This document shows positions 19,254-58,288 of a stretch of 64,000 bases of DNA, piece by piece. The notes below the pieces were generated by a model. The model worked only from the letters and a program-made list of their open reading frames with translations, made no database searches and had not been told where the DNA came from. This DNA is from a virus, in the IMG/VR virus record IMGVR_UViG_3300045988_115142, one strand, 5' to 3'. Positions within the stretch are counted from its first letter, which is position 1, and the number at the start of each line of letters is the position of its first letter. The position numbers and the translations under genes are program-made.

Positions 19254-19268
19254 TTTATTCTCCTTTCA

Positions 19269-36639: not shown

Positions 36640-36659
36640 ATTATTCATCTCCTTTCATT

Positions 36660-37169
36660 TTAATGATTTTCGCCTGGATTTGCAGTTTCTGTATTAGCTA
36701 ATGGATTATCATATTTAATCTTAGCTGCTTCATACTTAGCTACAAGATCTAGACCATCTAACGAAAGGGATTCATCTTTTACATAATCACTTAAATCTAC
36801 TTGAGGAGCAGACGAAGAGATAACACCAGCTTCGGATATAGTAATACCCTCACCAGCTGTAAGATGTTGGAGTTCGGTTTTCTTGGCATAGGTGGATTCT
36901 ACATCGGTAGTCTTAGCCAAACCTTCAATACTAGGAACTTGAACAGCAGCAACTGCATCTGTTACTTCTTGTTTAGTAGCAAGATTACTTATATTAGGAA
37001 TAGAAGTTTGATCGGCTTTAGATTCGATTTTGGTATCGATATCTTTAATCTTATCATGTAAATCTTTACCAGATAAAAAATAAACTGTTTCATTATCGAT
37101 AGTACCTTGCTCAATCATGGTTTTGAGTTTGGTATAATCAATTAAAACAGCTTTCTTTAAAACCGCCAT
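36660..37169 (-). CDS. short fibre protein carrying two copies of the giant-fibre repeat (169 aa)
   Basis: N-terminal adaptor motif followed by NLATKQEVTDAVAAVQVPSIEGLAKTTDVESTYAKKTEL, the same repeat unit as in 37252..42654. Confidence 0.7.
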   Translation of the reverse strand: MAVLKKAVLIDYTKLKTMIEQGTIDNETVYFLSGKDLHDKIKDIDTKIESKADQTSIPNISNLATKQEVTDAVAAVQVPSIEGLAKTTDVESTYAKKTELQHLTAGEGITISEAGVISSSAPQVDLSDYVKDESLSLDGLDLVAKYEAAKIKYDNPLANTETANPGENH

Positions 37170-37251: not shown

Positions 37252-40200
37252 TTAGTGTTCTACTTCTACTGTAGTGATATTAGCGAATGGGTTGTGCCAT
37301 TCAGTACCATTCCAGTATACAGGAACGCCAAGAGTTGTATCAAAGTATTGTTGACCAACTACAAGGTTTTCAGTAGGACGTTGTTCTGTAGTACCAGAAG
37401 CAACAGCAGCTAATTTAGCTTTGAGATCATTAATTGTAGACTCAAGTTCTGCTACTTTAGTATCATATACAGTTTTTGCTACAACTTCAGTAGTTTTAGC
37501 AAGACCTTCAATGGAAGGTAATTCAGCTTTAGTAGCAAGACCAGATACATCTGGTAATTCAGATTTCTTAGCGTAAGTGGATTCTACTTCTGTTTTAACA
37601 GCCAAGCCAGATACATCTGGAAGTTCTGTTTTCTTGGCATAAGTAGTTTCTACTTCAGCTGTCTTAGCATAGTCAGCTAATTTAGCTTCAACTTCAGTTG
37701 TTTTAGCTAAACCTTCGATGGAAGGAACTTGTACACCAGCAACAGCAGCTGTAACTTCAGCTTTAGTAGCCAAACCAGAAACGTCTGGTAATTCAGATTT
37801 CTTAGCATAAGTAGTTTCTACTTCGGATGCTTTAGCTAAACCTTCGATAGAAGGAAGTTCAGTTTTCTTAGCGTAACCAGCTAATTTACCATCAACTTCT
37901 GTAACTTTAGCTTCTAATTCACCTTTAGCTTCGTTAATTTTACCATCAACGTTTGTAGAGAATTGGTTGATATTTTGAGTTAAAGTTTCTTCTGTAACAA
38001 AGTCAGTTTTAAGTGCTTCAACTTCAGCTTTAGTAGCTAATGTAGATACATCTGGTAATTCAGTTTTCTTAGCATAAGCTGCTTCGATGTCTGTAGTTTT
38101 AGCTAAACCTTCAATGCTAGGAATAGCAGATGCGTCTGCTTTAGTAGCGAATTTAGCATCAACTGCAGCAACTTCAGCTTTAGTAGCCAAGCCAGATACG
38201 TCTGGAATAGCGGATACATCAGCTTTAGCAGCTAACTTAGTATCAACTTCAGTTGTTTTAGCTAAGCCTTCGATGGAAGGAAGTTCTGTTTTCTTAGCAT
38301 AATCAGCAAGTTTAGCTTCTACTTCAGTAGTCTTAGCCAAACCTTCAATACTAGGAACAGTAACACCAGCAACAGCAGCTGTAACTTCAGCTTTAGTAGC
38401 CAAGCCAGATACATCTGGTAATTCAGTTTTCTTAGCATAAGTAGTTTCCACTTCAGTTTTAACAGCCAAACCAGATACGTCTGGGATAGCAGTCACGTCA
38501 GCTTTAGTAGCCAACTTAGTATCTGTTTCAGCTTTAGTGTAAACATTTTTCACTTTATCAGCAACTGTAGCTAAGTCAGAGTTTTGAGCCAATGCTTTCA
38601 AGCTATTTACTGTTTCTACATCCAAACCAGCAACAGCATTAACTGCTTCTTTAGTAGCATATGTATTAGCGATATCTGCAGTTTTAGCGTAGTCAGCTAA
38701 CTTAGTATCAACTTCAGTAGTCTTAGCCAAACCTTCGATGGAAGGAAGTTCAGTTTTCTTAGCATAAGCTGCTTCGATATCTGTAGTTTTAGCGTAATCA
38801 GCAAGTTTAGCTTCAACTTCAGTTGTTTTAGCCAAACCTTCGATAGAAGGAACTTCTACAGCAGCAACAGCAGATGTAACTTCTGCTTTAGTAGCTAAAC
38901 CAGAAACATCTGGTAATTCAGCTTTCTTAGCGTAAGTAGTTTCCACTTCAGTTTTCTTAGCATAGTCAACTAATTTAGCATCAACTTCTGTACCTTTAAT
39001 GAAACCTTCTACAGAAGGAACAGTAATAGCAGCAACTTCTTGTTTAGTAGCTAAACCAGAAATGTCTGGCAATTCTGTTTTCTTAGCATAATCAGCAAGT
39101 TTAGTATCAACTTCAGTAGTTTTAGCTAAACCTTCGATGGAAGGAAGTTCAGTTTTCTTAGCATAAGTAGCTTCAACTTCAGTTGTTTTAGCTAAGCCTT
39201 CAATAGAAGGAACTTGTACACCAGCAACAGCGGCTGTAACTTCAGCTTTAGTAGCCAATGTGGATACGTCAGGGAGTTCAGTTTTCTTAGCATAAGTAGC
39301 TTCTACATCAGTAGTTTTAGCAAGACCTTCAATACTAGGAACTTGTACACCTGCAACAGCGGCTGTAACTTCTTGTTTAGTAGCAAGACCAGATACATCT
39401 GGAATAGCAGTAACGTCAGCTTTAGCTGCTAATTTGTCATCAGTTTCAGATTTAGTGTAAACGTTTTTCACTTTTTCTGCAACTGTAGTCAAGTCAGAGT
39501 TTTGAGCCAATGCTTTTAATTGGTTTACAGTATCTGCATCCAATCCAGCTACAGCATTTACAGCTTCTTTAGTAGCATAAGTTGCAGCAACTTCAGATGC
39601 TTTAGCCAAACCAGTAACCGCTTCAGTAACTTCAGCTTTAGTAGCTAAACCTTCAATAGAAGGTAATTCAGTTTTCTTAGCGTAGTCAGCAAGTTTAGTT
39701 TCTACGTCTGTAGTTTTAGCAAGACCTTCGATGGAAGGAACAGTAATAGCAGCAACTTCTGCTTTAGTAGCTAAACCAGATACATCTGGTAATTCTGTTT
39801 TCTTAGCATAAGTAGTTTCTACTTCAGCAGTTTTAGCCAAACCGGATACGTCTGGGATAGCGGATACATCAGCTTTAGCTTCTAATTTAGTATCAGTTTC
39901 AGCTTTAGTGTAAACGTTTTTCACTTTTTCTGCAACTGTAGCTAAGTCAGAGTTTTGAGCTAAAGTTTTCAAAGTATTTACAGTGTCAGCATCTAAGCCA
40001 GCTACTGCATTTACAGCTTCTTTAGTAGCATAAGTTTCAGCAACTTCAGCTTTTGTAGCTAAACCTTCAACAGAAGGAAGTTCTGTTTTCTTAGCATAAG
40101 TAGCTTCTACTTCAGCAGTTTTAGCATAATCAGCTAACTTAGTATCAACTTCTGTTGTTTTAGCAAGACCTTCGATAGAAGGTAATTCAGCTTTAGTAGC

Positions 40201-42654
40201 TAAGCCAGTTACATCTGGTAATTCAGTTTTCTTAGCGTAGTCAGCTAATTTAGTATCAACTTCAGTTGTTTTAGCTAAGCCTTCGATAGAAGGAACTTGT
40301 ACACCTGCAACTGCAGCTGTAACTTCAGCTTTAGTAGCGTAGTCAGCAAGTTTAGTTTCTACGTCTGTAGTTTTAGCTAAACCTTCAATACTAGGAACAG
40401 TAATAGCAGCAACTTCAGCTTTAGTAGCTAAACCAGAAACGTCTGGGATAGCAGTAACGTCAGCTTTAGCTGCAAGTTTATCATCAGTTTCAGCTTTAGT
40501 GTAAACGTTTTTCACTTTTTCTGCAACTGTAGTTAAATCGGAATTTTGTGCTAAAGTTTTCAAAGTGGATACAGTATCTGCATCTAAACCAGCTACTGCA
40601 TTGATAGCTTCTTTAGTAGCATATGTATTAGCAATTTCAGCTGTCTTAGCATAGTCAGCTAATTTAGTATCTACTTCTGCAGTTTTAGCGTAGTCAGCAA
40701 GTTTAGCTTCAACCTCAGTAGTCTTAGCCAAACCTTCAATACTAGGAACTTGTACACCAGCTACTGCATCAGTTACTTCTTGTTTAGTAGCAAGACCAGA
40801 TACGTCTGGAAGTTCAGTTTTCTTAGCATAAGTAGTTTCAACTTCAGAAGCTTTAGCAAGACCTTCAACAGAAGGTAATTCGGTTTTCTTAGCATAATCA
40901 GCAAGTTTAGCATCTACTTCAGCTGTCTTAGCATAGTCAGCTAATTTAGCTTCAACTTCTGTTGTTTTAGCCAAGCCTTCAATACTAGGAACTTGAACAC
41001 CAGAAACAGCAGCTGTAACTTCAGCTTTTGTAGCTAAGCCAGATACATCTGGGATAGCAGTTACGTCAGCTTTAGCTGCAAGTTTAGCTTCAACTTCAGT
41101 TGTTTTAGCATAGTCAACCAATTTAGCATCGGATTCTGCTTTAGTGTATACATTAGCTACTTTAGCAGCTACAGTAGTTAAGTCAGAGTTTTGTGCCAAA
41201 ACTTTTAATTCAGCAACAGTATCTGCATCTAAACCAGCTACTGCATTGATAGCTTCTTTAGTAGCGTATGTATTAGCGATGTCTGCAGTTTTAGCGTAAT
41301 CAGCTAATTTAGTATCTACTTCTGCAGTTTTAGCAACACCTTCAACAGCAGCTGTAACTTCAGCTTTAGTAGCAAGTGTAGGGATAACTGTAGCGTCAGC
41401 TTTTTCAGCTAATTTAGTATTAACTTCAGCTTCTTTAGCATAGTCAACCAATTTAGCATCTACTTCAGTAGTCTTAGCTAAACCTTCGATAGAATGCAAT
41501 TCAGTTTTCTTAGCATATGCTTCCAATTGAGTTTGAACTTCAACAGCTTTAGCGTAGTCGTTGAGTTTTTCTTCGACAGCAGCTGTTTTAGCATAAGCGG
41601 AAAGATCTTGTTCATGAACGTTTAATTTACCGTCAGTTACATAGAGACCTTCACCAACTTTTACACCACCCAATTCTTCTTCAGAAGCAACTGGAAGTGT
41701 GTATTTTTCTAAGCCAGCAAGTTTTTCTTTTTCTTCTGTTGTGAAGTCTTCAGTAGAAAGTTGTTTACCAACAACTACTTCAACTTTATTCAACATTTTA
41801 GCTTCAATGTCAGCTTTAAGATCATCTACAGCTTTCTTAGATTCTTCTTTAGTAGCGATTTTGTCTGTAGGAAGATTTTCCAATTCATGAGCAATATCAG
41901 CTACTTTTGCTTCTTTAGCTTTGCCTTCTTCGAAGTTAGCTTCAAGAGCACCAACTTGACCTTTCAAAGTATTCAATACTTCATCTACAGCTTGTTTCAA
42001 AACTGTATCTGCAGCTGTATAAGCAGTAGCTACTACTTTATTAGCTTCTTTAATAGTATCTTCAACTTTGCTAAGAGTTACATAGTTGGTATTAGGTTGA
42101 ATGATCAAGTTGTAGTCTAAGGAGTTAGGATCTTCAGTAAGTTGAATAGCTACACCCACATTACCTTTAGTATCAAGGTAGAAGTGACCATTAACCAAGT
42201 TTTGTGGACGAACTGTAGCATCTTTTACCAAAGAGCATACAGATGCATCGAATTTAGAAAGGTTAACATAAGAAGCACCATTAACGACACCCAAGTTAAC
42301 ACCGTCGAAATAGAATACGCCTTCTTTAGCACCAGCTGGTTGTTGAGAAGCATCTTCTACGTAGTTAATAGGACGAGCCTTAGGATCAATGAATTTAGTC
42401 CATTGATCATTAACCATACCCGCAACGCCACCGTTTTTATCTACATAGAAACGACCTTTGCGGATTGTTTTAACGTCAGGGATGTTATCAATAGAGTCGA
42501 TAACAACAAGAGCATCTGTAAGTTGTACGGAACCTTTGAAGAGTTCACCAGTATCTTCCAAGAAATAGAAAGCATCTTCGTCTACTTTAGTACCAGTAAT
42601 TAATTCACTGTATTTAGCTGCAGTAAGACGTACAAAGCGTTTAATCATGTTCAT
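37252..42654 (-). CDS. giant tandem-repeat fibre protein (1800 aa)
   Basis: The ATG at 42654 has AGGAGG 9 nt upstream and lies just after the stop of 42669..43427, so it is preferred over the track start at 42690. N-terminal adaptor motif, then GGVKVGEGL, then about 1350 aa of PSIEGLAKTTEV(E/D).KLADYAKKTEL / PDVSGLATKAEVTAAVAGVQV repeats. The C-terminus has RPTENLVVGQQYFDTTLGVPVYWNGTEW. Confidence 0.85.
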   Translation of the reverse strand: MNMIKRFVRLTAAKYSELITGTKVDEDAFYFLEDTGELFKGSVQLTDALVVIDSIDNIPDVKTIRKGRFYVDKNGGVAGMVNDQWTKFIDPKARPINYVEDASQQPAGAKEGVFYFDGVNLGVVNGASYVNLSKFDASVCSLVKDATVRPQNLVNGHFYLDTKGNVGVAIQLTEDPNSLDYNLIIQPNTNYVTLSKVEDTIKEANKVVATAYTAADTVLKQAVDEVLNTLKGQVGALEANFEEGKAKEAKVADIAHELENLPTDKIATKEESKKAVDDLKADIEAKMLNKVEVVVGKQLSTEDFTTEEKEKLAGLEKYTLPVASEEELGGVKVGEGLYVTDGKLNVHEQDLSAYAKTAAVEEKLNDYAKAVEVQTQLEAYAKKTELHSIEGLAKTTEVDAKLVDYAKEAEVNTKLAEKADATVIPTLATKAEVTAAVEGVAKTAEVDTKLADYAKTADIANTYATKEAINAVAGLDADTVAELKVLAQNSDLTTVAAKVANVYTKAESDAKLVDYAKTTEVEAKLAAKADVTAIPDVSGLATKAEVTAAVSGVQVPSIEGLAKTTEVEAKLADYAKTAEVDAKLADYAKKTELPSVEGLAKASEVETTYAKKTELPDVSGLATKQEVTDAVAGVQVPSIEGLAKTTEVEAKLADYAKTAEVDTKLADYAKTAEIANTYATKEAINAVAGLDADTVSTLKTLAQNSDLTTVAEKVKNVYTKAETDDKLAAKADVTAIPDVSGLATKAEVAAITVPSIEGLAKTTDVETKLADYATKAEVTAAVAGVQVPSIEGLAKTTEVDTKLADYAKKTELPDVTGLATKAELPSIEGLAKTTEVDTKLADYAKTAEVEATYAKKTELPSVEGLATKAEVAETYATKEAVNAVAGLDADTVNTLKTLAQNSDLATVAEKVKNVYTKAETDTKLEAKADVSAIPDVSGLAKTAEVETTYAKKTELPDVSGLATKAEVAAITVPSIEGLAKTTDVETKLADYAKKTELPSIEGLATKAEVTEAVTGLAKASEVAATYATKEAVNAVAGLDADTVNQLKALAQNSDLTTVAEKVKNVYTKSETDDKLAAKADVTAIPDVSGLATKQEVTAAVAGVQVPSIEGLAKTTDVEATYAKKTELPDVSTLATKAEVTAAVAGVQVPSIEGLAKTTEVEATYAKKTELPSIEGLAKTTEVDTKLADYAKKTELPDISGLATKQEVAAITVPSVEGFIKGTEVDAKLVDYAKKTEVETTYAKKAELPDVSGLATKAEVTSAVAAVEVPSIEGLAKTTEVEAKLADYAKTTDIEAAYAKKTELPSIEGLAKTTEVDTKLADYAKTADIANTYATKEAVNAVAGLDVETVNSLKALAQNSDLATVADKVKNVYTKAETDTKLATKADVTAIPDVSGLAVKTEVETTYAKKTELPDVSGLATKAEVTAAVAGVTVPSIEGLAKTTEVEAKLADYAKKTELPSIEGLAKTTEVDTKLAAKADVSAIPDVSGLATKAEVAAVDAKFATKADASAIPSIEGLAKTTDIEAAYAKKTELPDVSTLATKAEVEALKTDFVTEETLTQNINQFSTNVDGKINEAKGELEAKVTEVDGKLAGYAKKTELPSIEGLAKASEVETTYAKKSELPDVSGLATKAEVTAAVAGVQVPSIEGLAKTTEVEAKLADYAKTAEVETTYAKKTELPDVSGLAVKTEVESTYAKKSELPDVSGLATKAELPSIEGLAKTTEVVAKTVYDTKVAELESTINDLKAKLAAVASGTTEQRPTENLVVGQQYFDTTLGVPVYWNGTEWHNPFANITTVEVEH
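37480..41510 (-). repeat. in-frame tandem and nested coding repeats of the giant fibre gene
   Basis: Short units of ~20-25 aa recur dozens of times. A longer ~55-aa unit (..TYATKEA(I/V)NAVAGLD..TV..LK.LAQNSDL.TVA.KV.NVYTK.E.D.KL) occurs 5 times, at nt ~38530, 39450, 39900, 40500 and 41150. Confidence 0.85.
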
Positions 42655-42668
42655 ATTAGCAGTTCCTC

Positions 42669-43427
42669 CTATTCCTCTACTGTTTCCCATTCAAGAGCTT
42701 TATTCAATTTAGCTCGAGTAATAATTTCAAGGTTAGGATCTGTTTCGGCACCAGCTTTGTTATAAGTTTTGCCGTTTACGAACCAAGTATCACCGTGATC
42801 CAATGTTTCAAATTCAAGAACTTTAGTTGTACCAGCACGTAATTCAAGAGTGTCCAATTCATCTACAAGGATTGTAGCAGGAACTGTTTCACCGCGGGAG
42901 TTAGTAGTTACGTAAGTAACAGTTGGAACTGTTTGACCAACTACTACACACCAACGAATTTTTGCATAGTCAGCTTTAGCTTTCAAGAATACATTGAAAA
43001 CATAAGAAGGTAAGTTTGGAGTTACTTGTGTACGCATGATTGCACCGTCAGACAATGTAATCAAGTTACCATCTACAGCAGGATTACTAGCTGTAGGGTT
43101 ATCGCTAGGAGTAGCATCTTGTACTGTAACAGAGTCCAAAGAACCCCAGTTTTCATCAGTAGTATTACCGTTACCAGGATCGGAAGTTAATTTGAAAATG
43201 CCTGCAGAGAGAACATTAACAAGCATACCCAATTTACGACGTTTCTTAGGGATAGCATTACGTTCTTCAATTGTTTTTACAGAACGATAGCCACCTTGAC
43301 CATACTCTTCGTAATGAGTAGCATAATTATCGGTAGTTTTAAATGGAGCGATACCAGAAGCAACATTAGTGCCAGGGATATCGTAAGCAACAGGGCTTTC
43401 AACGACGCGTCGGTTTGTTGTGTCCAT
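42669..43427 (-). CDS. fibre/baseplate-associated protein (252 aa)
   Basis: AAGGAGG RBS. N-terminal GTNVASGIAPFKTTDNYATHYEEYGQGGYRSVKTIEERNAIPKKRRKLGM is paralogous to the partial ORF at 63815..64000. Confidence 0.75.
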   Translation of the reverse strand: MDTTNRRVVESPVAYDIPGTNVASGIAPFKTTDNYATHYEEYGQGGYRSVKTIEERNAIPKKRRKLGMLVNVLSAGIFKLTSDPGNGNTTDENWGSLDSVTVQDATPSDNPTASNPAVDGNLITLSDGAIMRTQVTPNLPSYVFNVFLKAKADYAKIRWCVVVGQTVPTVTYVTTNSRGETVPATILVDELDTLELRAGTTKVLEFETLDHGDTWFVNGKTYNKAGAETDPNLEIITRAKLNKALEWETVEE

Positions 43428-43583
43428 ATTAAAATTACACCTCCTTAAAAAAATAAAATTATTCTATATAGAATACGAGAAAATAGTAAACTTGAAAATT
43501 TTTCGAAGATACTCTTCTCTTCTATATTATGAAGTTCAGAGATTTTAACACCCTTTTGGAAGGAAAAAAATAAGGGAAGATTT

Positions 43584-43609
43584 GGAGTAGGCTAATATTA
43601 GCCTACTCC
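43584..43609 (-). terminator. palindromic hairpin ggagtagGCTAATATTAGCctactcc, overlapping the stop codon of 43598..44638
   Basis: Perfect inverted repeat. The TAA stop (43598..43600) and the last four codons (HGVG) lie inside the hairpin, and a T-rich tail follows on the minus strand. Confidence 0.6.
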
Positions 43610-44638
43610 GTGGAATTTATTATAAATTTTGCGTTCAATTTCTTTAAGCTCGCATTGTTGCATGAATCTCTTTTCCATACTTCCAATTTCACCTAAATTA
43701 ACAGCTGGACATTCAAAACAGTTGACGTTTTTACAACCTTTAGAACAACCAACTTCTTTGTTCAACTCCATTTCTAATTCTTTAGTTTTATTGAAGTCGA
43801 TACCAGATTTTAAATTACCAATCTTCCATTGTGTGGTCACATATATATTATCATCAGGAACAAACATACCGCAAGGGTATAGATCTCCATTCTTATCGAT
43901 ATGGAGATGAGAACCAAGATGACTACATTTAGAAGCTTCGGATGTTTCTTTATCTGAGTTATATTTAAGAGATTCCCAGTTTATATATCTGAATGAGAAG
44001 AAGCTATATATTCTAGCAACCTTTTCAAACATTTTCTTGCATTTATATATAAACCATTCATCTCTATACAATGGATATTCCATTATATAATACAACTCAA
44101 TAGATTTAGCTCCTCTAGATAGTAAAGCAAGCATAGATTCTTCAATGAATTCTACATTCTTTAGATGTATAGCTATCCTAACTGTTACATTAGGACATTC
44201 TTTGATTATACTATAGATAGCATTATTCACAAAGCCATTGTCATAACAAGACTTACGAATATACTTACTATACTTACCATCCCAGCTTACTTTTACTAAC
44301 TCTTCGTCTAGATATCCGTCTTTAATTAATTCAATTAAAGAATTGAAATATAGACCATTAGTGGTTAGACCAAATCTAAAGTGAACGTCTTTTGTTCTTT
44401 CTAGTTTTCTTATTTCTTTTATCATACGTTTAATACTATCAGAATAGATTAAAGGTTCTCCACCTATAAACTTTACATCTAAAGTATCTCCAGTAGGTAA
44501 ATCTTGTAAGAAATTTTTAAGATCATCGATATCAGTAAATACTCCTTCAGAGACTCCTTCTCCTTGGAAACAATAGTCACAACACATGTTGCATTTATCA
44601 GATACCTTGATCATGATAGATTTGAAGTTATCAAACAC
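43598..44638 (-). CDS. radical SAM / SPASM-domain protein (rSAM-D, 346 aa)
   Basis: GTG start overlapping the upstream stop (GTGTTTGA). It has CNMCCDYC (CX3CX2C) at residues 16-23, a GGEP motif, and C-terminal DLYPCGMF ... CSKGCKNVNCFECPA (SPASM-like Cys cluster). Confidence 0.8.
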   Translation of the reverse strand: MFDNFKSIMIKVSDKCNMCCDYCFQGEGVSEGVFTDIDDLKNFLQDLPTGDTLDVKFIGGEPLIYSDSIKRMIKEIRKLERTKDVHFRFGLTTNGLYFNSLIELIKDGYLDEELVKVSWDGKYSKYIRKSCYDNGFVNNAIYSIIKECPNVTVRIAIHLKNVEFIEESMLALLSRGAKSIELYYIMEYPLYRDEWFIYKCKKMFEKVARIYSFFSFRYINWESLKYNSDKETSEASKCSHLGSHLHIDKNGDLYPCGMFVPDDNIYVTTQWKIGNLKSGIDFNKTKELEMELNKEVGCSKGCKNVNCFECPAVNLGEIGSMEKRFMQQCELKEIERKIYNKFHGVG

Positions 44639-44975
44639 CTACGATCTCTCCAATCACTAAATTCTTCATATATTGATCGAAAGAGCTAAAGTTATAGAAG
44701 TCTACAGAGGTGAAAGTATTATCATAAACCGAATCAACCATATTTATTTCATCTATAGTTACTAGGTTATTATAATTCTTATACACATTTGTATTTACTT
44801 CTTGGAATAGAATACTATCGCTAAATAACTTAGCTCCAAAGTGATTAATAAGAGTTTGGTTATATCTCTTGATAATCTCTTTTAAAATTAACTCGTTTTC
44901 GAAGTTAAGGTTACAATGAATATTAATAGTTTTATCTACGTTCTTTACATAAACGACTAAATTTATAAATTCCAT
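44631..44975 (-). CDS. hypothetical small protein between two radical SAM genes (114 aa)
   Basis: Translationally coupled on both sides. No motif recognised. It may be an rSAM partner or substrate. Confidence 0.6.
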   Translation of the reverse strand: MEFINLVVYVKNVDKTINIHCNLNFENELILKEIIKRYNQTLINHFGAKLFSDSILFQEVNTNVYKNYNNLVTIDEINMVDSVYDNTFTSVDFYNFSSFDQYMKNLVIGEIVGV

Positions 44976-44978
44976 ATT

Positions 44979-46139
44979 TTATCTATCTCTCGCTATCCAA
45001 CTAGGCATCCTGTTAGTTACTTCAGGATCATTAACAAAATTTAATCTACCTAAGATCTTTTTTGTTTGTTGCTCTGTAAGAGCTGGTGCTAGAGTTTCGA
45101 ATATATCACTTTCAAGTTTCTTGAAAGGATGAATATAACAACCCAACCCCTTATGTCTTGTGTAATAAAGCATCGCTGGACACTTATTACAATGGTATTG
45201 ATTACATCCACTACAACCATTATCCCATTCGGTGTAATCTTTGACAAACTTTTGCATTTTGTCATAATCAATACCGTCTTTTACTGTACCAATAATGAAG
45301 TTTTGTTTAAAATTTTCACTAAAAAGAGAACAAGGGTATACATCCCCTGGGGTAGTGACATAAATCATTTTTCCTAAGATCTCACATCCCAAATCGAACG
45401 GTTTCCCTGCGTTTAGAGCACGAGTATAATATAAATAGTTCCAATTTTCATAATCAAATGGTTCGTTATTATATAACTCTGCTATCTTAATAGCTTGGAC
45501 TTTAAACTTCTTGAGAAGTTCTTCATCATGGTAATACATTGGGTCTTCTTTAAGATATAGAGGATAATACTCTATCTTATTACAACCACAATCTCTTGCA
45601 TACTTAACGGAATCGTATAAGTCATCTACTGTTTCATGAGTAAGTGCTATTCTAAGTAAAATATCATTACGATATTTACTTGCCCCAAGTTTAGCTACTT
45701 GATCTCTAAAGAATTGATCATCATATTGGTGTAATTTAGAAAATCGAACTTTTGATGCGGAATATAAACCATCCCAAGACATCTTCATAGACCAAGAGTC
45801 TAATACATTATCATCTAGTAATTCAAAGATACCATCTAAGTTAGTACCATTTGTTACAGTAGATGCAATGACTCTTGTATCTTTATATCGTTCGATCTTC
45901 TTCATTTCCTTCATAAAAGATCTAATTTCATTACAGTATAGACTACATTCCCCGCCAGTAAGTTCAAAGTCTAATACTGGTCCGATATCCATAGTAAGCA
46001 ACAGTTTTCTAAGTTCCCTTGACTTATTAAATACATTAGATTTAGCCTTGGAATCTCTATCAGAGATAATACAATAGCTACAATCTAAGTTACAAAAGCT
46101 ACAGAACTTAATAAGCACATATTTTATAGTATCAAACAT
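44979..46139 (-). CDS. radical SAM / SPASM-domain protein (rSAM-C, 386 aa)
   Basis: CNLDCSYC (CX3CX2C), a GGE motif, and C-terminal DVYPCSLF ... CSGCNQYHCNKCPA. The N-terminus MFDTIKYVLIK is paralogous to MFDNFKSIMIK in rSAM-D. Confidence 0.8.
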   Translation of the reverse strand: MFDTIKYVLIKFCSFCNLDCSYCIISDRDSKAKSNVFNKSRELRKLLLTMDIGPVLDFELTGGECSLYCNEIRSFMKEMKKIERYKDTRVIASTVTNGTNLDGIFELLDDNVLDSWSMKMSWDGLYSASKVRFSKLHQYDDQFFRDQVAKLGASKYRNDILLRIALTHETVDDLYDSVKYARDCGCNKIEYYPLYLKEDPMYYHDEELLKKFKVQAIKIAELYNNEPFDYENWNYLYYTRALNAGKPFDLGCEILGKMIYVTTPGDVYPCSLFSENFKQNFIIGTVKDGIDYDKMQKFVKDYTEWDNGCSGCNQYHCNKCPAMLYYTRHKGLGCYIHPFKKLESDIFETLAPALTEQQTKKILGRLNFVNDPEVTNRMPSWIARDR

Positions 46140-46141
46140 GG

Positions 46142-47290
46142 TTATTCTACCGTTATATGCTTAAGATTTTCTAGATAGAAGTTATTCTTAAAGAAAGAAT
46201 CACAATCTTCTAGAGTACGGGATTCTACTACACCATTAAATGGATTTGTAGATACATCAGAACCTAATCTATCCGATAGAATAAACTCTTTATCTGTATC
46301 AGAAAGATATTTGATCTTAATATCTCTCATATAGTCACAGTAATCAGTGAGTTTAAGATATTTACGAATAAGGATAGCATACATAGCATGATTAGACTTA
46401 TCATAATAGCTTAACCCACGAAGAGTATTTTCTATATAATATAGAGAATCATTAATGTAATCTACAATAGTAGAAGTCATATGATGGAATGCTGTAAAAT
46501 CACCTTTGAATAGATATAGGTTATTTATAGTATCCATATATGATAATACAGAGAAACTGCAGTTATAGTATTGGAAAGATTTTTCATTTACAATACCATT
46601 TACTCTACCCAATAGATTAAGAATCTCTTGACTAGGTAATTTAGGGTTATTAACCATTACAGTTTGTACTGCTTCTAGATATGCTTCTAAGAAAGAGTTT
46701 TCGAAGATATCTGTATCATCATATACATTCAATTCATCTAATAATTGTAATGCTTGGTCTGCAAAAGATTTATCCCATTTCATATCAACGAAATTAATCT
46801 TAGTAGCAATTACATACAACTTAGCATGCATATATTTTAACCAAATATATTTAGAAAGATTCATCTCTTTCTTTTCTTCTAAACTAGTAGACTCAAATAA
46901 GTTTACATAAGGTTTCATATATTCGGTATATGTACCATCTTCATATGATTTATTAAGGATATTAGATAATAAGAAGAATTTATTTTCATAATCATAGACT
47001 TCAGAATTACCAGTTTCATACTTAACAATCATTTCTTGTTTAGAATACTTACCATTGTTGATTTTGTATTCTTCAATATAATTAGGTTTGTCTTTGAAGA
47101 AAGTTTCGATAAGTTTATCTAGTTTAATTCCTAGAGCTTTGATTTCATCATTATCTACCCAGTTAGTAGTGATAGCATGTTCAAATGTATTCTTCTCTGT
47201 ATAGATATCTTCCATTTGTTCAGAGATATCGATAAAATCTTGATTATCTTTAATTTCATCATAAAGACGTTCTGGTAAATAAAGGATCAT
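46142..47290 (-). CDS. hypothetical, predicted mostly helical protein (382 aa)
   Basis: GAAAGGAAGGA RBS. Its stop is 2 nt before the rSAM-C start, so they form an operon. No family recognised. Confidence 0.7.
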   Translation of the reverse strand: MILYLPERLYDEIKDNQDFIDISEQMEDIYTEKNTFEHAITTNWVDNDEIKALGIKLDKLIETFFKDKPNYIEEYKINNGKYSKQEMIVKYETGNSEVYDYENKFFLLSNILNKSYEDGTYTEYMKPYVNLFESTSLEEKKEMNLSKYIWLKYMHAKLYVIATKINFVDMKWDKSFADQALQLLDELNVYDDTDIFENSFLEAYLEAVQTVMVNNPKLPSQEILNLLGRVNGIVNEKSFQYYNCSFSVLSYMDTINNLYLFKGDFTAFHHMTSTIVDYINDSLYYIENTLRGLSYYDKSNHAMYAILIRKYLKLTDYCDYMRDIKIKYLSDTDKEFILSDRLGSDVSTNPFNGVVESRTLEDCDSFFKNNFYLENLKHITVE

Positions 47291-47325
47291 TTATCTATCC
47301 TTCCTTTCGGAGACAAAAAATAAAA

Positions 47326-47347
47326 GAGGGGTGTATTTCTACACCCC
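47326..47347 (-). terminator. hairpin aggggtgta-tttc-tacacccct
   Basis: GC-rich 9-bp stem followed by cttttatttttt on the minus strand, 7 nt after the stop of 47355..47693. Confidence 0.75.
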
Positions 47348-47354
47348 TGTTTAT

Positions 47355-47693
47355 TTAATCTGCAAACTTGCAAATACTTTCAGCATCTATATGATCTTTA
47401 ACCCAGATTTGATAGGTCTCTTTGTTGATAAGATGTCTGATGTATTTCTCAATAGAGCATGCTTCTAAAAAGCCTCGATTAGTTTCCCATATGATATTAC
47501 GAATATCTAATTCATCTTGGTCTATAACTTCGATTCTAAAAAGAATATTTGGGTTTTCTTTATACCACATTTTACCATGTATTAAGATAGATTCTTCTAT
47601 TCTTTTTAAAGCAGTATCTAACTCTTTTTCTTTTATATCTCTGATAGAGAATTCAAGACGTTCTAATTTTTTGTAGATATTAATAGTAAACAT
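47355..47693 (-). CDS. hypothetical small protein (112 aa)
   Basis: GAGGAG RBS. It lies 23 nt downstream of the SLH-bearing adhesin gene with no intervening terminator. Confidence 0.65.
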   Translation of the reverse strand: MFTINIYKKLERLEFSIRDIKEKELDTALKRIEESILIHGKMWYKENPNILFRIEVIDQDELDIRNIIWETNRGFLEACSIEKYIRHLINKETYQIWVKDHIDAESICKFAD

Positions 47694-47716
47694 ACAAAGC
47701 TCCTCTTTTTCTTAGT

Positions 47717-50347
47717 CTATTTTACAATTGTACCATAGTTGTCACGAGTATTGTCTTTATTAACACGTACACGTTCAACTTTATTAACAGCACCATCTTT
47801 ACCAGATAGACGATCTACACGGAAATGCATACCACTTCGTACTGTATCTAGTTCAACTTTGAATTCTTTGATAGCACGACCCATTTCTGGATGCATATAA
47901 CCAGCAGTAATAGCACGGTCTAAAGCTACTGCAAATTCATAGCGAGTTAAAGTAAGATCACCGTTGAAGTTTTTATCTGGATATCCAACGACAATACCTT
48001 TGTAAGCAAGATCTTGCACCATCATGTATGCCCAATGATTTTCTGGAACGTCAGGGAATACTACATCGGTAATTGCTTCATTACGACCCATAGCATGATC
48101 AATTAATGCATCGATCTTAGCATTTTGAGCGGCAACGATTGCACGAAGTTCTTCGATTTCCTTAGCCATAGCTACTTGTTTATTAGTATTCATTCTGGAA
48201 GATTTACCAAACTTCATGGATACACCAGCACCTACCATAGGTTCGCTACCAATAGTAGAAGATACTGTTACCATTGTGTTCTCATTAGGTTGATAAGCTA
48301 CACCGAGAGCACCGGCATTAGCACCTTTATAGTGACCATAACCTGCAGCGAAGCTCCATTTATCATCAGCATTGAAGTCTTGGTAATGTAAGTTAGCCAT
48401 AGCAGCAGCACGAGCACCAACTTTAGCTGTTTGAAGATCAGTATAATGGTTTGCTCTAGCTGTAGCAGCATTGGAAGTATTGTTAATACGATCGTTGATA
48501 TTCTTTTCAGTTTCACGTAATTGGTTAACGTTAACTGCATCAGTACCATCGATACCTTTATCAACGTTGATAATACGTTTACCGCCATTGTTTAATCCTT
48601 TATCTGTTAAGGAAATTTCATCAATAGGGTTTGCATCACCATCATTGGTTCTAATACGCATACCATCGTATTTGAAGCTAGTATGATATTCGCGATCAGT
48701 ACCACGGTAAGTCATATTAATACCTTCTGTTGTGTAAGAGGATTGACTATTTCCATCGTTTAAATTAACGGAATTAAGATCTCTTAAATCTTTAGATGTA
48801 GATACAGTGAAAGTACCATTATCTTCAGCAACTTCAATGTTGTCGCCAGCTTTTACGTATGTTTTATTTTCATTAACATAGCTTTTCAACTGTTTAACGT
48901 TAACTGCATCAGTATCTGCTACACCAGCTTTTACATTGTTGATGATTTGATCACCAGCACTGATACCATCTGTAGTGTAGTAAACTGTTTTATTACCTTC
49001 ACTAGCATACATACCAGTTTTGTCAAATTTTGCTTGATCTAATGTATCAGTATTTTCAATTTGAATACCATTTGATGTAACACCGATGTTTTCACTACCG
49101 TTGAAGAAACGAGCTCCATCTTTAGTAACAGTGGAACGTACATCATCGGTAGCTTTACCAAAGTTAACAGAATTCATTTCATTCAAATCTTTGTTTACAG
49201 CTACCTTATATTCAACACCACCAGCAGTATTTGTACCTGCAGTTACAGTTGTATTATCACCAGCAATTACAGAGGAATGTTTTTTAGCTTCTGTTTCAAC
49301 TACTTTTAACTGAGCTACATTAACTGCATCAGTATCTTCTGTACCAGCAGCTAAACCTGTTAGTTGACGAGTAACATTATTTTCTCTATCACCAACGGAT
49401 AAAGCACTCTTAGTAGATTTCCATGTAGCATCATCTTTACCTTCTGCTAAGTAACCAACTGTACCAGCTAATCTATCTGCTACACTATCGTCGCCTAATG
49501 CCATAGAACCAACACCAGTAGCTTTGGCTTTATTACCAATAGCAACTGCATAATCATTATCAGTTTTAGAATCCATACCAATAGCGATTGCACCATAACC
49601 ATTAGCTGTACCTTGAGCCATTGCTAAAGAGTACTTGCCATTAGCTGTAGAAGCACCACCGATAGCAGTAGCAGCGTAAGCTGTAGTAGATGCATGAGCA
49701 CCTAGAGAAACAGTGAAATAGTTATTAGTATTGGCTTTAGGACCAATTACGACAGATGCTCCTTTTCCAGCTTGAGCTAATTTAGCAGATGCACCTTCTC
49801 CCATGACAATGGACCACATTGCATTTTCAGCAATGATATCCCTACCATGAACCAAAGCACCATAGGAATTGGTTACATTGTTATGCTGACCCATTACAGT
49901 GGCGTGTGGAGAATTTTTAACTGTGATGTAATCCCCTTTAATCATGGTAGATCTGTCACCATACTTCTTAATGGATTCCTCATCATTTTCATTGGTAATG
50001 TGATTGCCAATCATAAGACCATAACTGGAATCTTTGATTTTTACTACATCACCAATTGCAATGTTTTCTACATTGCGACCAGATGGTGCAACTTCAGTAC
50101 CAGAGAAAATGTTATAAATATTGGTACCTGTATACTTGGACCATCCACCTAAGATGACATTATGTACTGTATTTTCATTTTTAGGTACTTCAGTATCTAC
50201 TTTTACATTACCTACAGTAGATACTAAATTGTAATTAGAACCTGCTGTATGATTATTTTCTAAAGTAATAATATTTTCTGCATTTGCACCAGCAGAAATA
50301 ACTGATAAAATAGCTGCAGTTAATAAAATTCTGTTGTTTGTTTTCAT
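47717..50347 (-). CDS. trimeric autotransporter adhesin (YadA-like) with post-anchor coiled coil and C-terminal SLH domain (876 aa)
   Basis: Signal peptide MKTNNRILLTAAILSVISAGANA; head repeats (AIAIG.DS.., AVAIGNKAKATGVGSMALG); three DTDAVNV.QL neck motifs. Anchor: ANLHYQDFNADDKWSFAAGYGHYKGANAGALGVAYQPNENTMV...GAGVSMKFG. Next come a coiled coil and FPDVPENHWAYMMVQDLAYKGIVVGYPD..F.GD..LTRYEFA (SLH, nt ~47925..48065). Confidence 0.85.
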   Translation of the reverse strand: MKTNNRILLTAAILSVISAGANAENIITLENNHTAGSNYNLVSTVGNVKVDTEVPKNENTVHNVILGGWSKYTGTNIYNIFSGTEVAPSGRNVENIAIGDVVKIKDSSYGLMIGNHITNENDEESIKKYGDRSTMIKGDYITVKNSPHATVMGQHNNVTNSYGALVHGRDIIAENAMWSIVMGEGASAKLAQAGKGASVVIGPKANTNNYFTVSLGAHASTTAYAATAIGGASTANGKYSLAMAQGTANGYGAIAIGMDSKTDNDYAVAIGNKAKATGVGSMALGDDSVADRLAGTVGYLAEGKDDATWKSTKSALSVGDRENNVTRQLTGLAAGTEDTDAVNVAQLKVVETEAKKHSSVIAGDNTTVTAGTNTAGGVEYKVAVNKDLNEMNSVNFGKATDDVRSTVTKDGARFFNGSENIGVTSNGIQIENTDTLDQAKFDKTGMYASEGNKTVYYTTDGISAGDQIINNVKAGVADTDAVNVKQLKSYVNENKTYVKAGDNIEVAEDNGTFTVSTSKDLRDLNSVNLNDGNSQSSYTTEGINMTYRGTDREYHTSFKYDGMRIRTNDGDANPIDEISLTDKGLNNGGKRIINVDKGIDGTDAVNVNQLRETEKNINDRINNTSNAATARANHYTDLQTAKVGARAAAMANLHYQDFNADDKWSFAAGYGHYKGANAGALGVAYQPNENTMVTVSSTIGSEPMVGAGVSMKFGKSSRMNTNKQVAMAKEIEELRAIVAAQNAKIDALIDHAMGRNEAITDVVFPDVPENHWAYMMVQDLAYKGIVVGYPDKNFNGDLTLTRYEFAVALDRAITAGYMHPEMGRAIKEFKVELDTVRSGMHFRVDRLSGKDGAVNKVERVRVNKDNTRDNYGTIVK

Positions 50348-50372
50348 TCGAAATGTCTCCTTTAATTAAAAA

Positions 50373-50396
50373 AAGAGCCTCAATTAAGAGGCTCTT
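50373..50396 (-). terminator. hairpin aagagcctc-aattaa-gaggctctt
   Basis: 9-bp stem followed by a T5 run on the minus strand, 13 nt after the stop of 50410..52209. Confidence 0.7.
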
Positions 50397-50409
50397 ATTT
50401 AAATATAAA

Positions 50410-52209
50410 TTATTTACCAGCTTTAAGCTCAGCCACTTCAGCAGTCAATTTATCTACTAAAGCTTCTAGTTTTTCAATTCGACTATCTTTGGATTTTGCT
50501 TCATTGATGTACTCAGAGCCTTTACCAGTTTTGAACGCTACACCCAAATTCATTTGAGGGTGTTTACCGAAGCTGATTGCACCGGAAATCATTGTTCTTT
50601 CGTTAGGACGGTAGAAAGCACCAACTGCTACAGCATTGGCATTTCTGTAATGACCAACGGATGCAGCATAGGAAGCTTTGTCATCTTTGTTGAAGTCCAA
50701 AGGATGCAAGCCAGCTAATGCTGCAGATTGAGCACCCACGTGTGCTACTTGGCTGTCAGTGTAGTTGTTAGCTTGATTAAGTGTATTGGAACCAACTTCG
50801 GCGATTTTGTTATTTAAATCACTTACTTTAGTATCAATCTTATTATCTAGATCAGATACTTTGATACCAATTTTGTTCGTTTCTTCGATAACAGAGTTCA
50901 ATTGGCTACCGTTTACAGCATCAGTAGAAGCTGTAGATACTCTACCAGCTGCTAGGTTAGTGATTGTACGTTCTTTACCAGCATCACCAATGGATACAGT
51001 ACCGATAGGATTGCTACCGGCAAATGTATGGGTATTACCATTGATTGTAGTAGATGCTGTACCAACTACAGTATCAGCATTGCTGTTATGACCAATAGCT
51101 ACAGATTCTTCTTTCACAACAGATGTATTATTACCGATAGCTACACTATAGTTAGCATTGCTGATTTGATTATCTGTACCAACCACTGTTACATGGTAAC
51201 TGTCTTGTGCAATGTTAGCATTGCCCATTACAGTATCGCCTTGTGGATCTTCCAAATGGTCACTATGTACAACATAGTTGTTACTGCCAACCATTGTGGA
51301 ATATTTACTTGCACCTTCATTAGATGTACCAATATTTACGGCATAAGTTCCTTCTGCAGAAACCATATGACCGATAGCCACAGAGCTAACACCTGTTGCA
51401 TTAGCGATAGAACCAACTGCTGTTGAGTTGTTACCTGCTTCATTACTGTTACCAATAGCTACACCATTGTCGAAAGTAGACTTACTGTGATCACCAACGA
51501 CAACACCACCAAAACTATTAGTGGAGCTATTATTACCAATAACGATACCATGACCGTTTGTATTTGTAATATCGGTACCGATACCAATACTACCTTTCTT
51601 ACCTGTTGTTACATTGTGACCAATAGCTAAGCTATTTTCTTCAGTGGCATTTGTTTGATTACCAATAGCGATAGAATTGTTAGCAGTGGCAATTGCTTCT
51701 TTACCGATAGCATATGTATTGTCGCCTTCTACTTTAGCATCTTCACCGAATACTAGTGAGTTTTTGCCTGTGAGTTTTGCTCTTTCGCCACCAGCGATAG
51801 AATTATCACTTCGGAAATCGATAGCATTATTATAACCAAATACTAATGTATTACTAGAGTGGCTAGCATTATAAATGCCACCAGCGATAGAATTATTCGC
51901 ATTCGTGATTGTATTATGGTCACCAGCCACTACAGAATTAGCTGAATTATTATTGTTACTAATACCGAAAGTTGCACTATTATGTGCATCAAGCTGAACA
52001 GTGTTATTTTCACCACCAGCAATAATATTAGTCAAATGACCGTGTGCTTGTGTAACATTTGTATCATGACCATAGATAATACTGTTTTTAACTGACTCGG
52101 CTACTGGATATTGACCAGTATGATAATCATGAGTAGTAGAATCTGCCGCCATAGCTGTAGTGGATAAGGTTGTCAATACCAAAGTTAGTAAAATTTTATT
52201 TGTTTTCAT
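50410..52209 (-). CDS. trimeric autotransporter adhesin (YadA-like) with post-anchor coiled coil (599 aa)
   Basis: Signal peptide MKTNKILLTLVLTTLSTTAMA and a long array of YadA-head-type repeats (NSIAIGNQ.., SVAIGH.., NSTAVGS..). Neck motif STDAVNGSQL. Anchor: LAGLHPLDFNKDDKASYAASVGHYRNANAVAVGAFYRPNERTMI...NLGVAFKTG, then RIEKLEALVDKLTAEVAELK. Confidence 0.85.
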   Translation of the reverse strand: MKTNKILLTLVLTTLSTTAMAADSTTHDYHTGQYPVAESVKNSIIYGHDTNVTQAHGHLTNIIAGGENNTVQLDAHNSATFGISNNNNSANSVVAGDHNTITNANNSIAGGIYNASHSSNTLVFGYNNAIDFRSDNSIAGGERAKLTGKNSLVFGEDAKVEGDNTYAIGKEAIATANNSIAIGNQTNATEENSLAIGHNVTTGKKGSIGIGTDITNTNGHGIVIGNNSSTNSFGGVVVGDHSKSTFDNGVAIGNSNEAGNNSTAVGSIANATGVSSVAIGHMVSAEGTYAVNIGTSNEGASKYSTMVGSNNYVVHSDHLEDPQGDTVMGNANIAQDSYHVTVVGTDNQISNANYSVAIGNNTSVVKEESVAIGHNSNADTVVGTASTTINGNTHTFAGSNPIGTVSIGDAGKERTITNLAAGRVSTASTDAVNGSQLNSVIEETNKIGIKVSDLDNKIDTKVSDLNNKIAEVGSNTLNQANNYTDSQVAHVGAQSAALAGLHPLDFNKDDKASYAASVGHYRNANAVAVGAFYRPNERTMISGAISFGKHPQMNLGVAFKTGKGSEYINEAKSKDSRIEKLEALVDKLTAEVAELKAGK

Positions 52210-52231
52210 TCGAAATTCCTCCTTAAAAAGT

Positions 52232-52253
52232 AAAGCCTCGATTAAGAGGCTTT
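52232..52253 (-). terminator. hairpin aaagcctc-gattaa-gaggcttt
   Basis: 8-bp stem nearly identical to the 50373..50396 hairpin, 11 nt after the stop of 52265..53779. Confidence 0.65.
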
Positions 52254-52264
52254 ATAAAGTATAA

Positions 52265-58262: not shown

Positions 58263-58288
58263 ACCAGTAGCCAATATTGGCTACTGGT
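58263..58288 (-). terminator. palindromic hairpin accagtagCCAATATTGGctactggt
   Basis: Perfect 26-nt palindrome 12 nt after the stop of 58301..58753. Its 18-nt core is identical to that of 563..588. Confidence 0.65.

Follow-up and report, generated by a model that had tools for sequence, protein, structure and literature searches.

A radical SAM gene cassette with a Cys-repeat partner protein in a clade of jumbo phages

Radical S-adenosylmethionine (SAM) enzymes with a SPASM domain are known as maturases from bacterial pathways for peptides made by ribosomes and modified after translation (RiPPs) and also from a small number of systems for protein maturation, among them those of QhpD and anSME. 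A set of such enzymes in viral DNA raises the question of what they would modify there. The DNA analysed here, referred to as the window, is a stretch of 64,000 nucleotides of viral origin (IMG/VR record IMGVR_UViG_3300045988_115142). Around positions 43598–47693 it encodes two radical SAM enzymes, rSAM-C and rSAM-D, together with U2, a protein of 382 aa, S, a protein of 114 aa, and a further protein of 112 aa (Table 1). A preliminary description took this region for an independent second operon, next to that of the enzymes rSAM-A and rSAM-B, with no obvious Cys-rich substrate. On the gene order of its relatives, however, the unit U2–rSAM-C–S–rSAM-D (43598–47290) belongs, as its far half, to a single conserved radical SAM cassette with four enzymes, and the substrate is probably the CQ-repeat tail of U1, a protein encoded in the other half. 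The reading favoured here is that of a conserved maturation cassette in which the U1 tail would be cross-linked by several radical SAM enzymes and U2 and S would be their adaptors. Its probability is put at roughly 0.55.

The genes of the local unit are tightly coupled, as first described. Only 2 nt separate U2 from rSAM-C (TAAccATG) and 3 nt separate rSAM-C from S, and S overlaps rSAM-D by 8 nt (GTGTTTGA). The unit is under purifying selection within the lineage, with dN/dS values of 0.05–0.17 (U2 0.05, S 0.17 and rSAM-D 0.08). Its supposed independence did not survive the comparison of gene order in related phages. Six divergent relatives, with 37–45% identity in U2 (L014, L016, L018, L019, L021 and others), have all four radical SAM genes contiguous, in the conserved order, read as ancestral, of rSAM-A (~460 aa), U1 (430–440 aa), rSAM-B, U2, rSAM-C, S and rSAM-D. 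The junctions throughout are start/stop overlaps or gaps of a few nucleotides, and rSAM-B directly abuts U2. Thus, the "second operon" appears to be the distal half of a single cassette. In the same relatives, rSAM-D is followed by a gene for a 236–239-aa protein and then by a giant fibre gene.

Scans seeded with U1 and scans seeded with rSAM-C independently found an identical core set everywhere, consisting of rSAM-A, U1 with a CQ tail, rSAM-B, U2 and rSAM-C. Beyond this core, individual lineages add a second U2-like gene after U1, rSAM-D, S, more A-like radical SAM genes or U1 paralogues, and the number of radical SAM genes per cassette ranges from three to six. Among the rSAM-C-seeded loci with at least 9 kb of sequence upstream of rSAM-C, a CQ-tail U1 was present in 56 of 58 from IMG/VR and in 44 of 45 from metagenomes (100/103 in total). 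The three exceptions lack U1 in the flank because an adhesin island, specific to the lineage of the window, pushes U1 beyond it. In the window itself U1 lies 7.7 kb upstream of the "second operon", across this island. Hence a Cys-rich protein does accompany the rSAM-C cassette across the sampled lineages, contrary to the preliminary description. Two further loci, L240 and L290 (BNJT/BNJU contigs), were missed in open reading frame (ORF) screens because their assemblies are full of frameshifts, which are probably long-read assembly errors; the cassette is recovered in them by tblastn.

Contigs of 250–255 kb in IMG/VR and in ENA metagenome assemblies carry rSAM-C or rSAM-D at 96–99% identity, and the window is a portion of a jumbo phage of ~254 kb. 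The cassette belongs to a clade of jumbo phages of ~200–285 kb known from metagenomes, many of them from human-microbiome samples, as the type of many of the sample identifiers indicates. A comparison with 50,697 deposited phage genomes gave no match by megablast with the region or by tblastn with U2. Against the same genomes, rSAM-D found only matches of 22–26% identity and one partial match of 32% (examples are in the Ralstonia jumbo phages RP12 and RP31). Among 185,579 bacterial and archaeal species, represented by one genome each, there was one true relative of rSAM-C, on a 2.7-kb contig in a metagenome-assembled genome; the remaining matches to rSAM-C reflect the generic N-terminal radical SAM motif. 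At the sensitivity used, C-type enzymes therefore appear essentially confined to phage-type contigs, where they always occur with the cassette.

U1 has no match in Pfam or NCBIfam, and its family is highly variable. Total length ranges from 134 to 605 aa, with a conserved N-terminal region of ~100 aa and a modular middle. The middle is missing in proteins of 134–210 aa, and is otherwise a beta-rich region or the glycine-rich domain PF21722; by eye only, some forms have a possible carbohydrate-binding-like insertion. U1 proteins of the PF21722 type also match minor tail proteins and tail fibre assembly proteins in PHROG. What is best conserved in this otherwise variable protein is its tail, which in the window reads ...WWDDNGYCNITCQTHCQSTCQLSCQGCYSNTCHNQNCGMS and whose eight Cys are invariant in an alignment of five lineages. 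The consensus of 22 distinct tails is C-x3-CQxxCQxxCQxxCQxC-x3-TCHNQNCG, and the number of CQxx units among phages varies from 4 to ~13, the highest number being found in one variant. The cassette always lies among tail/fibre-type genes. Because of this neighbourhood and of the tail-type domains that some U1 forms bear, U1 may be a component of the virion tail, which is the weakest link of the argument.

Variant arrangements of U1 were also observed. In the lineage of L277, L281, L283 and L285 (e.g. L277 4519–7785), an S homologue is found upstream of rSAM-A, there is no rSAM-D, and two short U1 proteins (134–174 aa) have tails that end in TCHDKKCGGGF, not TCHNQNCGG. Other loci (L049, L042-L061, L085 and L087) carry a duplicated mini-module downstream of rSAM-C (e.g. 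L049 16468–18891). It consists of a gene for a 381-aa A-like radical SAM enzyme, followed by one for a 400-aa U1-like protein, in which the CQ repeat (CIKPCQVGCQIGCEI) is internal and shortened and the C-terminus is extended by a long Tyr-rich stretch.

rSAM-C and rSAM-D are paralogues with similar N-termini (31% identity over 328 aa, E 2e-42), and in this the preliminary description was correct. Both contain the radical SAM motif C16-x3-C20-x2-C23 and both belong to the radical SAM superfamily by their PF04055 scores (31.5 for rSAM-C and 41.1 for rSAM-D; cutoff 29.5). The CX3CX2C motif is kept by rSAM-C in all ten aligned lineages and by rSAM-D in each full-length orthologue examined, a tally that leaves out the 5'-truncated gene calls L014_D and L021_D. 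Membership in the SPASM group was judged by a seven-Cys motif (CX9-15GX4C, gap, CX2CX5CX3C, gap, C) together with a score above the family cutoff. The first half of this motif is present in both enzymes, as C252...G-x4-C270 in rSAM-C and C238...G-x4-C256 in rSAM-D. The second half is compressed to CX2CX4CX2C in rSAM-C (C309-x2-C312-x4-C317-x2-C320) and to CX3CX4CX2C in rSAM-D (C298-x3-C302-x4-C307-x2-C310), with a final Cys after each. These Cys positions confirm that the C-terminal motifs of rSAM-C and rSAM-D are variants, unlike the canonical CX2CX5CX3C block of rSAM-A and rSAM-B.

All seven SPASM-position Cys are retained in the rSAM-D of the window. The Cys that are invariant in rSAM-C across ten lineages are C16, C20, C23, C186, C252, C270, C312, C317 and C320, and the D-type enzymes of the wider clade have C-x2-C-x4-C-x2-C in most orthologues. 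Judged from these alignments, the compressed Cys block characterizes the C/D subfamily. The SPASM scores under PF13186 are 20.4 for rSAM-C and 16.7 for rSAM-D (cutoff 21.5); rSAM-C alone also has a TIGR04085 score, 22.1, which is likewise below its cutoff of 27.

The preliminary description had assumed a peptide or protein substrate, and the best family matches, which are peptide- or protein-modifying enzymes, agree with it. The top NCBIfam match of both enzymes is PapB (NF047865), with 85.1 bits for rSAM-C and 103.9 bits for rSAM-D against a cutoff of 340. The SCIFF maturase family (TIGR03974, cutoff 425) gives 51.4 and 68.1 bits respectively. The two maturase families of the CXXX-repeat system give 32.8 and 73.7 bits for TIGR04115 (cutoff 350), which is the second-best NCBIfam match of rSAM-D, and 25.4 and 30.7 bits for TIGR04119 (cutoff 150). 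Under the QhpD-type model TIGR03906 (cutoff 453), rSAM-C and rSAM-D score 32 and 38 bits, and rSAM-A scores 167 bits. With a further 207 bits for PapB and 138 bits for the SCIFF maturase, rSAM-A is, by profile score, the cassette enzyme nearest to characterized thioether synthases. Weak generic matches of rSAM-C and rSAM-D to MoaA/NrdG-type families stem from the radical SAM core.

By sequence, the sole strong relative of either enzyme in the PDB is CteB (5WGG; E 1.9e-11 for rSAM-C and 3.5e-13 for rSAM-D). The alignment begins at CteB residue 96 for rSAM-C and 97 for rSAM-D, past the RiPP recognition element (RRE) of CteB, and the radical SAM motif of both enzymes already occupies residues 16–23. 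rSAM-C and rSAM-D are therefore without an N-terminal RRE.

The constant partner of these enzymes, U2, models as a helical solenoid that resembles tetratricopeptide repeat (TPR) proteins. Its AlphaFold2 model (pLDDT 83, pTM 0.84) is all-alpha with 23 helices. The top Foldseek matches in the PDB are the TPR proteins LGN, Pins, KLC and TTC5 (probability at most 0.97, E ~0.05, TM 0.3–0.46, with ~0.35 for the best matches, LGN, Pins and KLC), and the only close viral fold matches are uncharacterized Myoviridae sp. proteins in BFVD (TM 0.84). No match to U2 was found in Pfam (TPR families included), NCBIfam or PHROG, and profile searches of PDB sequences with U2 and with U1 returned nothing meaningful. 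A profile search of 1.84e9 representatives gave 61 matches to U2, the strong ones mostly full length. Among 5.8e9 proteins U2 forms 8 clusters at 90% identity, the longest contigs of which include several of 230–285 kb; no viral loci were found via the single distant homologues P0050 and P0025. In the cassette, the U2 gene always adjoins rSAM-B, rSAM-C or rSAM-D, often with overlapping stop and start codons. Alignment of 35 homologues (~20–45% identity) revealed a conserved N-terminal motif, M-x-x-Y-[LIV]-P-E-R-[IL]-Y, and among the positions that vary hardly or not at all are M1, P6, E7, Y10 and several Tyr. The possibility that U2 (382 aa) and U1 (442 aa) are paralogues was considered and rejected (hhalign probability 0.2%).

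S is modelled as a compact protein with a beta-beta-alpha-beta4-alpha fold (AlphaFold2; pLDDT 84, pTM 0.79), for which Foldseek found no match in the PDB better than E 0.5 and TM 0.3. The only hint from its sequence is a weak match to the SarA family (E 0.011). Conservation is spread over the chain, the C-terminus is variable, and the single Cys is the invariant C21. Orthologues of S lie between rSAM-C and rSAM-D in this subclade; the L277-type lineage has them upstream of rSAM-A, and S is absent from most other lineages. Two roles for S were rejected. A RiPP precursor with leader and core is not compatible with the globular model, the spread conservation and the single Cys, and an RRE/PqqD-like element, for which a winged-helix-like fold with three beta strands and three helices would be expected, is not compatible with the lack of a PDB fold match (best E 0.5).

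Both U2 and S are unlike leader–core precursors, because the models show a solenoid for U2 and a small globular fold for S, and neither carries a conserved Cys-rich segment. Cys residues number three in U2, one in S and two in the 112-aa protein. Among the ORFs of at least 15 aa in 43300–47800 there is no Cys-rich one, nor any small Cys-rich precursor of the SCIFF type (~45 aa), and thus the earlier statement that the small neighbours are not Cys-rich is accurate locally. The 112-, 114- and 140-aa proteins of the window show no mutual similarity by BLAST.

In the favoured reading, each enzyme would cleave SAM reductively to generate a 5'-deoxyadenosyl radical. This radical would take a hydrogen atom from a side-chain carbon, either of Gln or Asn in the QxxC and NxxC registers or of Thr. 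The adjacent Cys thiolate, bound on the auxiliary Fe-S cluster, would then close an S–C thioether, and the outcome would be a ladder of small rings along the U1 tail. The part of an RRE in presenting the substrate would be taken by U2, as a solenoid of a peptide-binding type, and by S. The register is proposed because the tail is made of QxxC units and a terminal NxxC, as in the Cys–Asn link of NxxcA.

SCIFF cores contain CQ/SC-type Cys repeats similar to the U1 tail. Their maturase CteB, which acts on CteA, resembles rSAM-C and rSAM-D in having a radical SAM core and a C-terminal multi-Cys auxiliary domain. It differs in its N-terminal RRE of ~95 residues, which rSAM-C and rSAM-D lack, and in its Cys block, which is compressed to CX2CX4CX2C in the C/D enzymes. 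A SCIFF precursor is ~45 aa long, whereas the putative substrate here is the tail of a modular protein of 134–605 aa, served by three to six radical SAM genes per cassette that are phage-encoded. The bacterial CXXX-repeat system (TIGR04115, TIGR04119 and TIGR04117) is alike in having a Cys at every fourth residue, although the U1 tail matches its target model only at E 1.7. To our knowledge, this system is uncharacterized.

Ranthipeptide chemistry has been established on NxxC, Cys-X3-Asp and Cys-Thr motifs and on the protein substrate QhpC (PMC8326336, PMC10114670), and that of SCIFF peptides is an S–C(gamma/beta) thioether (PMC8326336). PapB of the freyrasin pathway is a single enzyme that forms six Cys-X3-Asp thioether rings along the repeats of its substrate, PapA (PMC8326336). 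It is the top NCBIfam match of rSAM-A as well, and it aligns with rSAM-A, rSAM-C and rSAM-D over nearly the full length, without an N-terminal extension, and the PapA repeat parallels the CQxx repeat of U1. However, the acceptors in U1 would be Gln, Asn or Thr in place of the Asp used by PapB, and in the cassette a TPR-like partner joins several different enzymes, and the substrate would be of protein size. The streptococcal beta-thioether system NxxcB/NxxcA is similar in that the QxxC units and the N-Q-N-C end of U1 share the Cys23–Asn20 register. NxxcA, in contrast, is a short peptide under quorum-sensing regulation with a single link, and the likeness to U1 is one of register.

QhpD is a radical SAM/SPASM enzyme that places several Cys-to-Asp/Glu thioethers in a protein subunit, which is not a RiPP (PMC10114670). 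Its substrate QhpC, the gamma-subunit of quinohemoprotein amine dehydrogenase, is thus a precedent for thioethers within a protein, and rSAM-A scores 167 bits with this type. The QhpD system, however, serves the maturation of a cellular respiratory enzyme with one radical SAM enzyme, and there are no dehydrogenase genes here. Taken together, the cassette would work in the manner of ranthipeptide or QhpD-type maturation, although its C and D enzymes fall below the PapB, SCIFF and CXXX-repeat thresholds. No description of such a phage radical SAM/SPASM system was found in the open literature, the coverage of which was incomplete.

Several observations weigh against the proposed cross-linking of the U1 tail. 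Linkage alone does not single out the enzyme, among the four, that would act on U1. The duplicated A-like radical SAM/U1-like gene pairs of some lineages suggest that the A-type enzyme may be specific for U1 and that rSAM-B, rSAM-C and rSAM-D have another role. The U1 tail fits no known precursor family (the best is TIGR04117, with E 1.7 and 8.8 bits against a cutoff of 50), and the TPR assignment of U2 is built on fold matches of low TM. Four of the six closest lineages have Ser in place of the first Cys in the rSAM-C block. Most auxiliary Cys of rSAM-D are lost in the L016 and L019 orthologues, and rSAM-D is dispensable in some lineages, its gene being absent from those of the L156/L277 type. 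Both enzymes score far under every NCBIfam equivalog cutoff and just under the Pfam threshold for SPASM. SPASM membership of rSAM-C and rSAM-D is therefore likely yet not formal, because of the Ser replacement in rSAM-C, the loss of the block or of the whole gene in the case of rSAM-D, and the Pfam scores below cutoff.

As the preliminary description cautioned, the chemistry of rSAM-C and rSAM-D may be other than that of a Cys thioether. These two enzymes, and perhaps rSAM-B, might leave the U1 tail to rSAM-A and instead form a C–C or C–O cross-link in U2 or S, epimerize a residue or carry out a formylglycine-type oxidation, for instance at the N-terminal motif of U2. The constant adjacency of U2-type genes to rSAM-B, rSAM-C or rSAM-D, with their frequent stop/start overlaps, and the near-invariant M1, P6, E7, Y10 and Tyr positions would fit such a role, as would the distinct compressed Cys block, the want of a conserved Cys-rich segment in U2 and S, and the A-like/U1-like pairs, in which rSAM-A alone may serve U1. 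This explanation is nevertheless considered doubtful. U2 is confidently modelled as a solenoid of 380 aa, unlike known radical SAM/SPASM substrates save proteins such as QhpC and sulfatases, and S as a target is missing from most lineages. Moreover, the nearest relatives of rSAM-C and rSAM-D are thioether synthases, and rSAM-C was never seen without a CQ-tail U1 in the rSAM-C-seeded scans. It is also conceivable that rSAM-D, and possibly rSAM-C, has degenerated in part and serves the other radical SAM enzymes without catalysis, as a scaffold or for specificity, given the lineages without rSAM-D, the Cys losses in L016 and L019 and the SPASM scores under the Pfam cutoff. Such degeneration is possible in some lineages and unlikely in the window, where the seven SPASM-position Cys are all present and the dN/dS of rSAM-D is 0.08; the CX3CX2C motif for the SAM cluster, too, is kept in rSAM-C of ten lineages and in all full-length rSAM-D examined.

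Other substrates were named in the preliminary description, which pointed to nearby structural proteins, namely the 252-aa protein at 42669–43427, the giant fibre at 37252–42690 and the adhesins. The neighbourhood of the cassette is indeed of the tail/fibre kind, and in this subclade the genes after rSAM-D are always those of a 236–252-aa protein and a giant fibre. In other lineages, however, the cassette is followed by unrelated genes, namely by small ORFs, by an A-like radical SAM/U1-like pair or by different tail-fibre-like proteins. The adhesins, for their part, are a lineage-specific hypervariable insertion with its own terminators, and the 252-aa protein and the 1812-aa fibre have one Cys each. 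Because these adjacencies are lineage-specific, the three candidates have lost ground and are very unlikely substrates. A non-peptide pathway, be it DNA hypermodification or cofactor or lipid chemistry, is judged more improbable still. A phage radical SAM enzyme that acts on DNA-linked amino acids is known, gp53 of M6 (PMC8989533), and the weak MoaA/NrdG-type matches could be read in this direction. This DNA-modifying phage enzyme, however, is spore-photoproduct-lyase-like and not of the SPASM type (PMC8989533), and the full-length similarity of rSAM-C and rSAM-D is to PapB, CteB and the CXXX-repeat maturases. The cassette, in which U1 and U2 are the constant partners, has no conserved gene from a nucleotide or cofactor pathway, and this explanation is disfavoured.

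If the cross-linking reading is carried to its full extent, it becomes tentative. A clade of jumbo phages would then use three to six radical SAM/SPASM enzymes of its own, with TPR-like adaptors instead of RREs, to turn the CQ tail of a virion protein, modular and tail-fibre-like, into a stapled thioether ladder. Chemistry of the RiPP or QhpD type would thereby build or harden a structural or receptor-binding protein, and the C/D enzymes would represent a new, largely phage-restricted SPASM subfamily. If true, this would be the first radical SAM post-translational cross-linking of a virion component in the literature searched, and confirmation would extend radical peptide chemistry to phage proteins. 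The (CQxx)n repeat would be a lead as a new repeat substrate for thioether or other cross-linking enzymes. In addition, the cassette offers a defined test case for substrate recognition by maturases without an RRE, and, with four paralogous enzymes and a single candidate substrate, a system that is tractable by experiment. In terms of annotation, the two "operons" of the window are a single functional unit, which a mobile, hypervariable adhesin island interrupts.

This island lies exactly at the rSAM-B/U2 junction (Table 1), and its three adhesin genes are complete and of the trimeric autotransporter kind. All three of its adhesins have YadA_anchor and YadA_stalk domains in Pfam, two have YadA_head, and the 876-aa protein has an SLH domain. 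The joint presence of SLH and YadA domains could point to a host among the diderm Firmicutes, for example Veillonella. The 504-aa and 599-aa adhesin genes are each followed by a terminator, and a third one stands after the 112-aa gene, which comes behind the 876-aa gene. Among near-identical genomes the island holds two to four adhesin genes with 32–98% identity, and the cassette proteins are 97–100% identical. It is absent from L014, L016, L018, L019 and L021, and L240, a relative with ~50% identity, has an insertion of ~5 kb at the same rSAM-B/U2 junction. By this comparison the adhesin island is an insertion that splits the cassette in the lineage of the window. A smaller addition is the 140-aa gene, which is missing in L014, L016, L018 and L021, where rSAM-A abuts U1, and present in L240.

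The 112-aa gene does lie upstream of U2, as described earlier, and its homologues (52–96% identity) evolve with the adhesin island and not with the operon. It falls outside the operon because a strong intrinsic terminator (47327–47348) separates it from U2. This terminator has a 9-bp stem with five GC pairs and a T-run (-20.4 kcal/mol, z -5.3). Matches to sigma-70-type promoters were fewer than shuffled sequences predict and are hence uninformative, and none was taken as a promoter of the U2–rSAM-C–S–rSAM-D unit.

Table 1. Features of the radical SAM cassette and its surroundings in the window
Feature	Position	Strand	Description
3' palindrome/hairpin	43584–43609	minus	26 nt, 11-bp perfect, contains rSAM-D stop; 3' boundary of cassette
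rSAM-D	43598–44638	minus	346 aa, GTG start
S	44631–44975	minus	114 aa
rSAM-C	44979–46139	minus	386 aa
U2	46142–47290	minus	382 aa, leads local unit
Intrinsic terminator	47327–47348	minus	Between 112-aa gene and U2, end of island
Hypervariable island	47355–53779	minus	Three adhesin genes and 112-aa gene
112-aa gene	47355–47693	minus	Upstream of U2, past terminator
YadA-type adhesin, 876 aa	47717–50347	minus	Pfam YadA domains, C-terminal SLH
YadA-type adhesin, 599 aa	50410–52209	minus	Pfam YadA domains
YadA-type adhesin, 504 aa	52265–53779	minus	Pfam YadA domains
rSAM-B	53942–55006	minus	354 aa, PF04055 61.5, CX2CX5CX3C
U1	55024–56352	minus	442 aa, between rSAM-A and rSAM-B
U1 Cys-rich tail	nt 55027–55140 (residues ~405–442)	minus	CQ-repeat C-terminus
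140-aa gene	56364–56786	minus	Between rSAM-A and U1, lineage-restricted addition
rSAM-A	56786–58189	minus	467 aa, canonical SPASM Cys block
Palindromic hairpin/terminator	58263–58288	minus	Upstream of rSAM-A, 5' boundary of cassette, -23.5 kcal/mol

Two palindromes bracket the whole cassette, one over the rSAM-D stop codon and one upstream of rSAM-A. They share the motif AGTAG-N2-3-AATATT-N2-3-CTACT, which has two copies in the 64 kb (43586–43607 and 58266–58285) against a chance expectation of 0.00. The motif is kept in the lineage and is also found downstream of rSAM-D in L240. Either a shared terminator or a site of the operator kind could explain it. A terminator had been proposed over the last stop codon of the unit. 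There is a stable hairpin at this place (-19.9 kcal/mol, z -6.2), but the consensus terminator scan made no call, because the U-run lies ~14 nt downstream.

Repetitive genes were also seen outside the cassette. The giant fibre protein (37252–42690, minus strand, 1812 aa) contains many repeats of ~30–70 aa (e.g. ...AKTTEVDTKLADYAKKTELPSIEGL...), and its orthologues range from 980 to 1958 aa. The small neighbouring genes at 36660–37169, 34174–34473 and 34504–36648 share repeat and terminal segments with the fibre, which suggests module shuffling. Similarly, four large genes on the minus strand of 9929–22313 (9929–10963, 12759–14021, 14040–19253 and 19269–22313) share repeated C-terminal domains with 40–60% identity and look like a paralogous fibre- or adhesin-like family.

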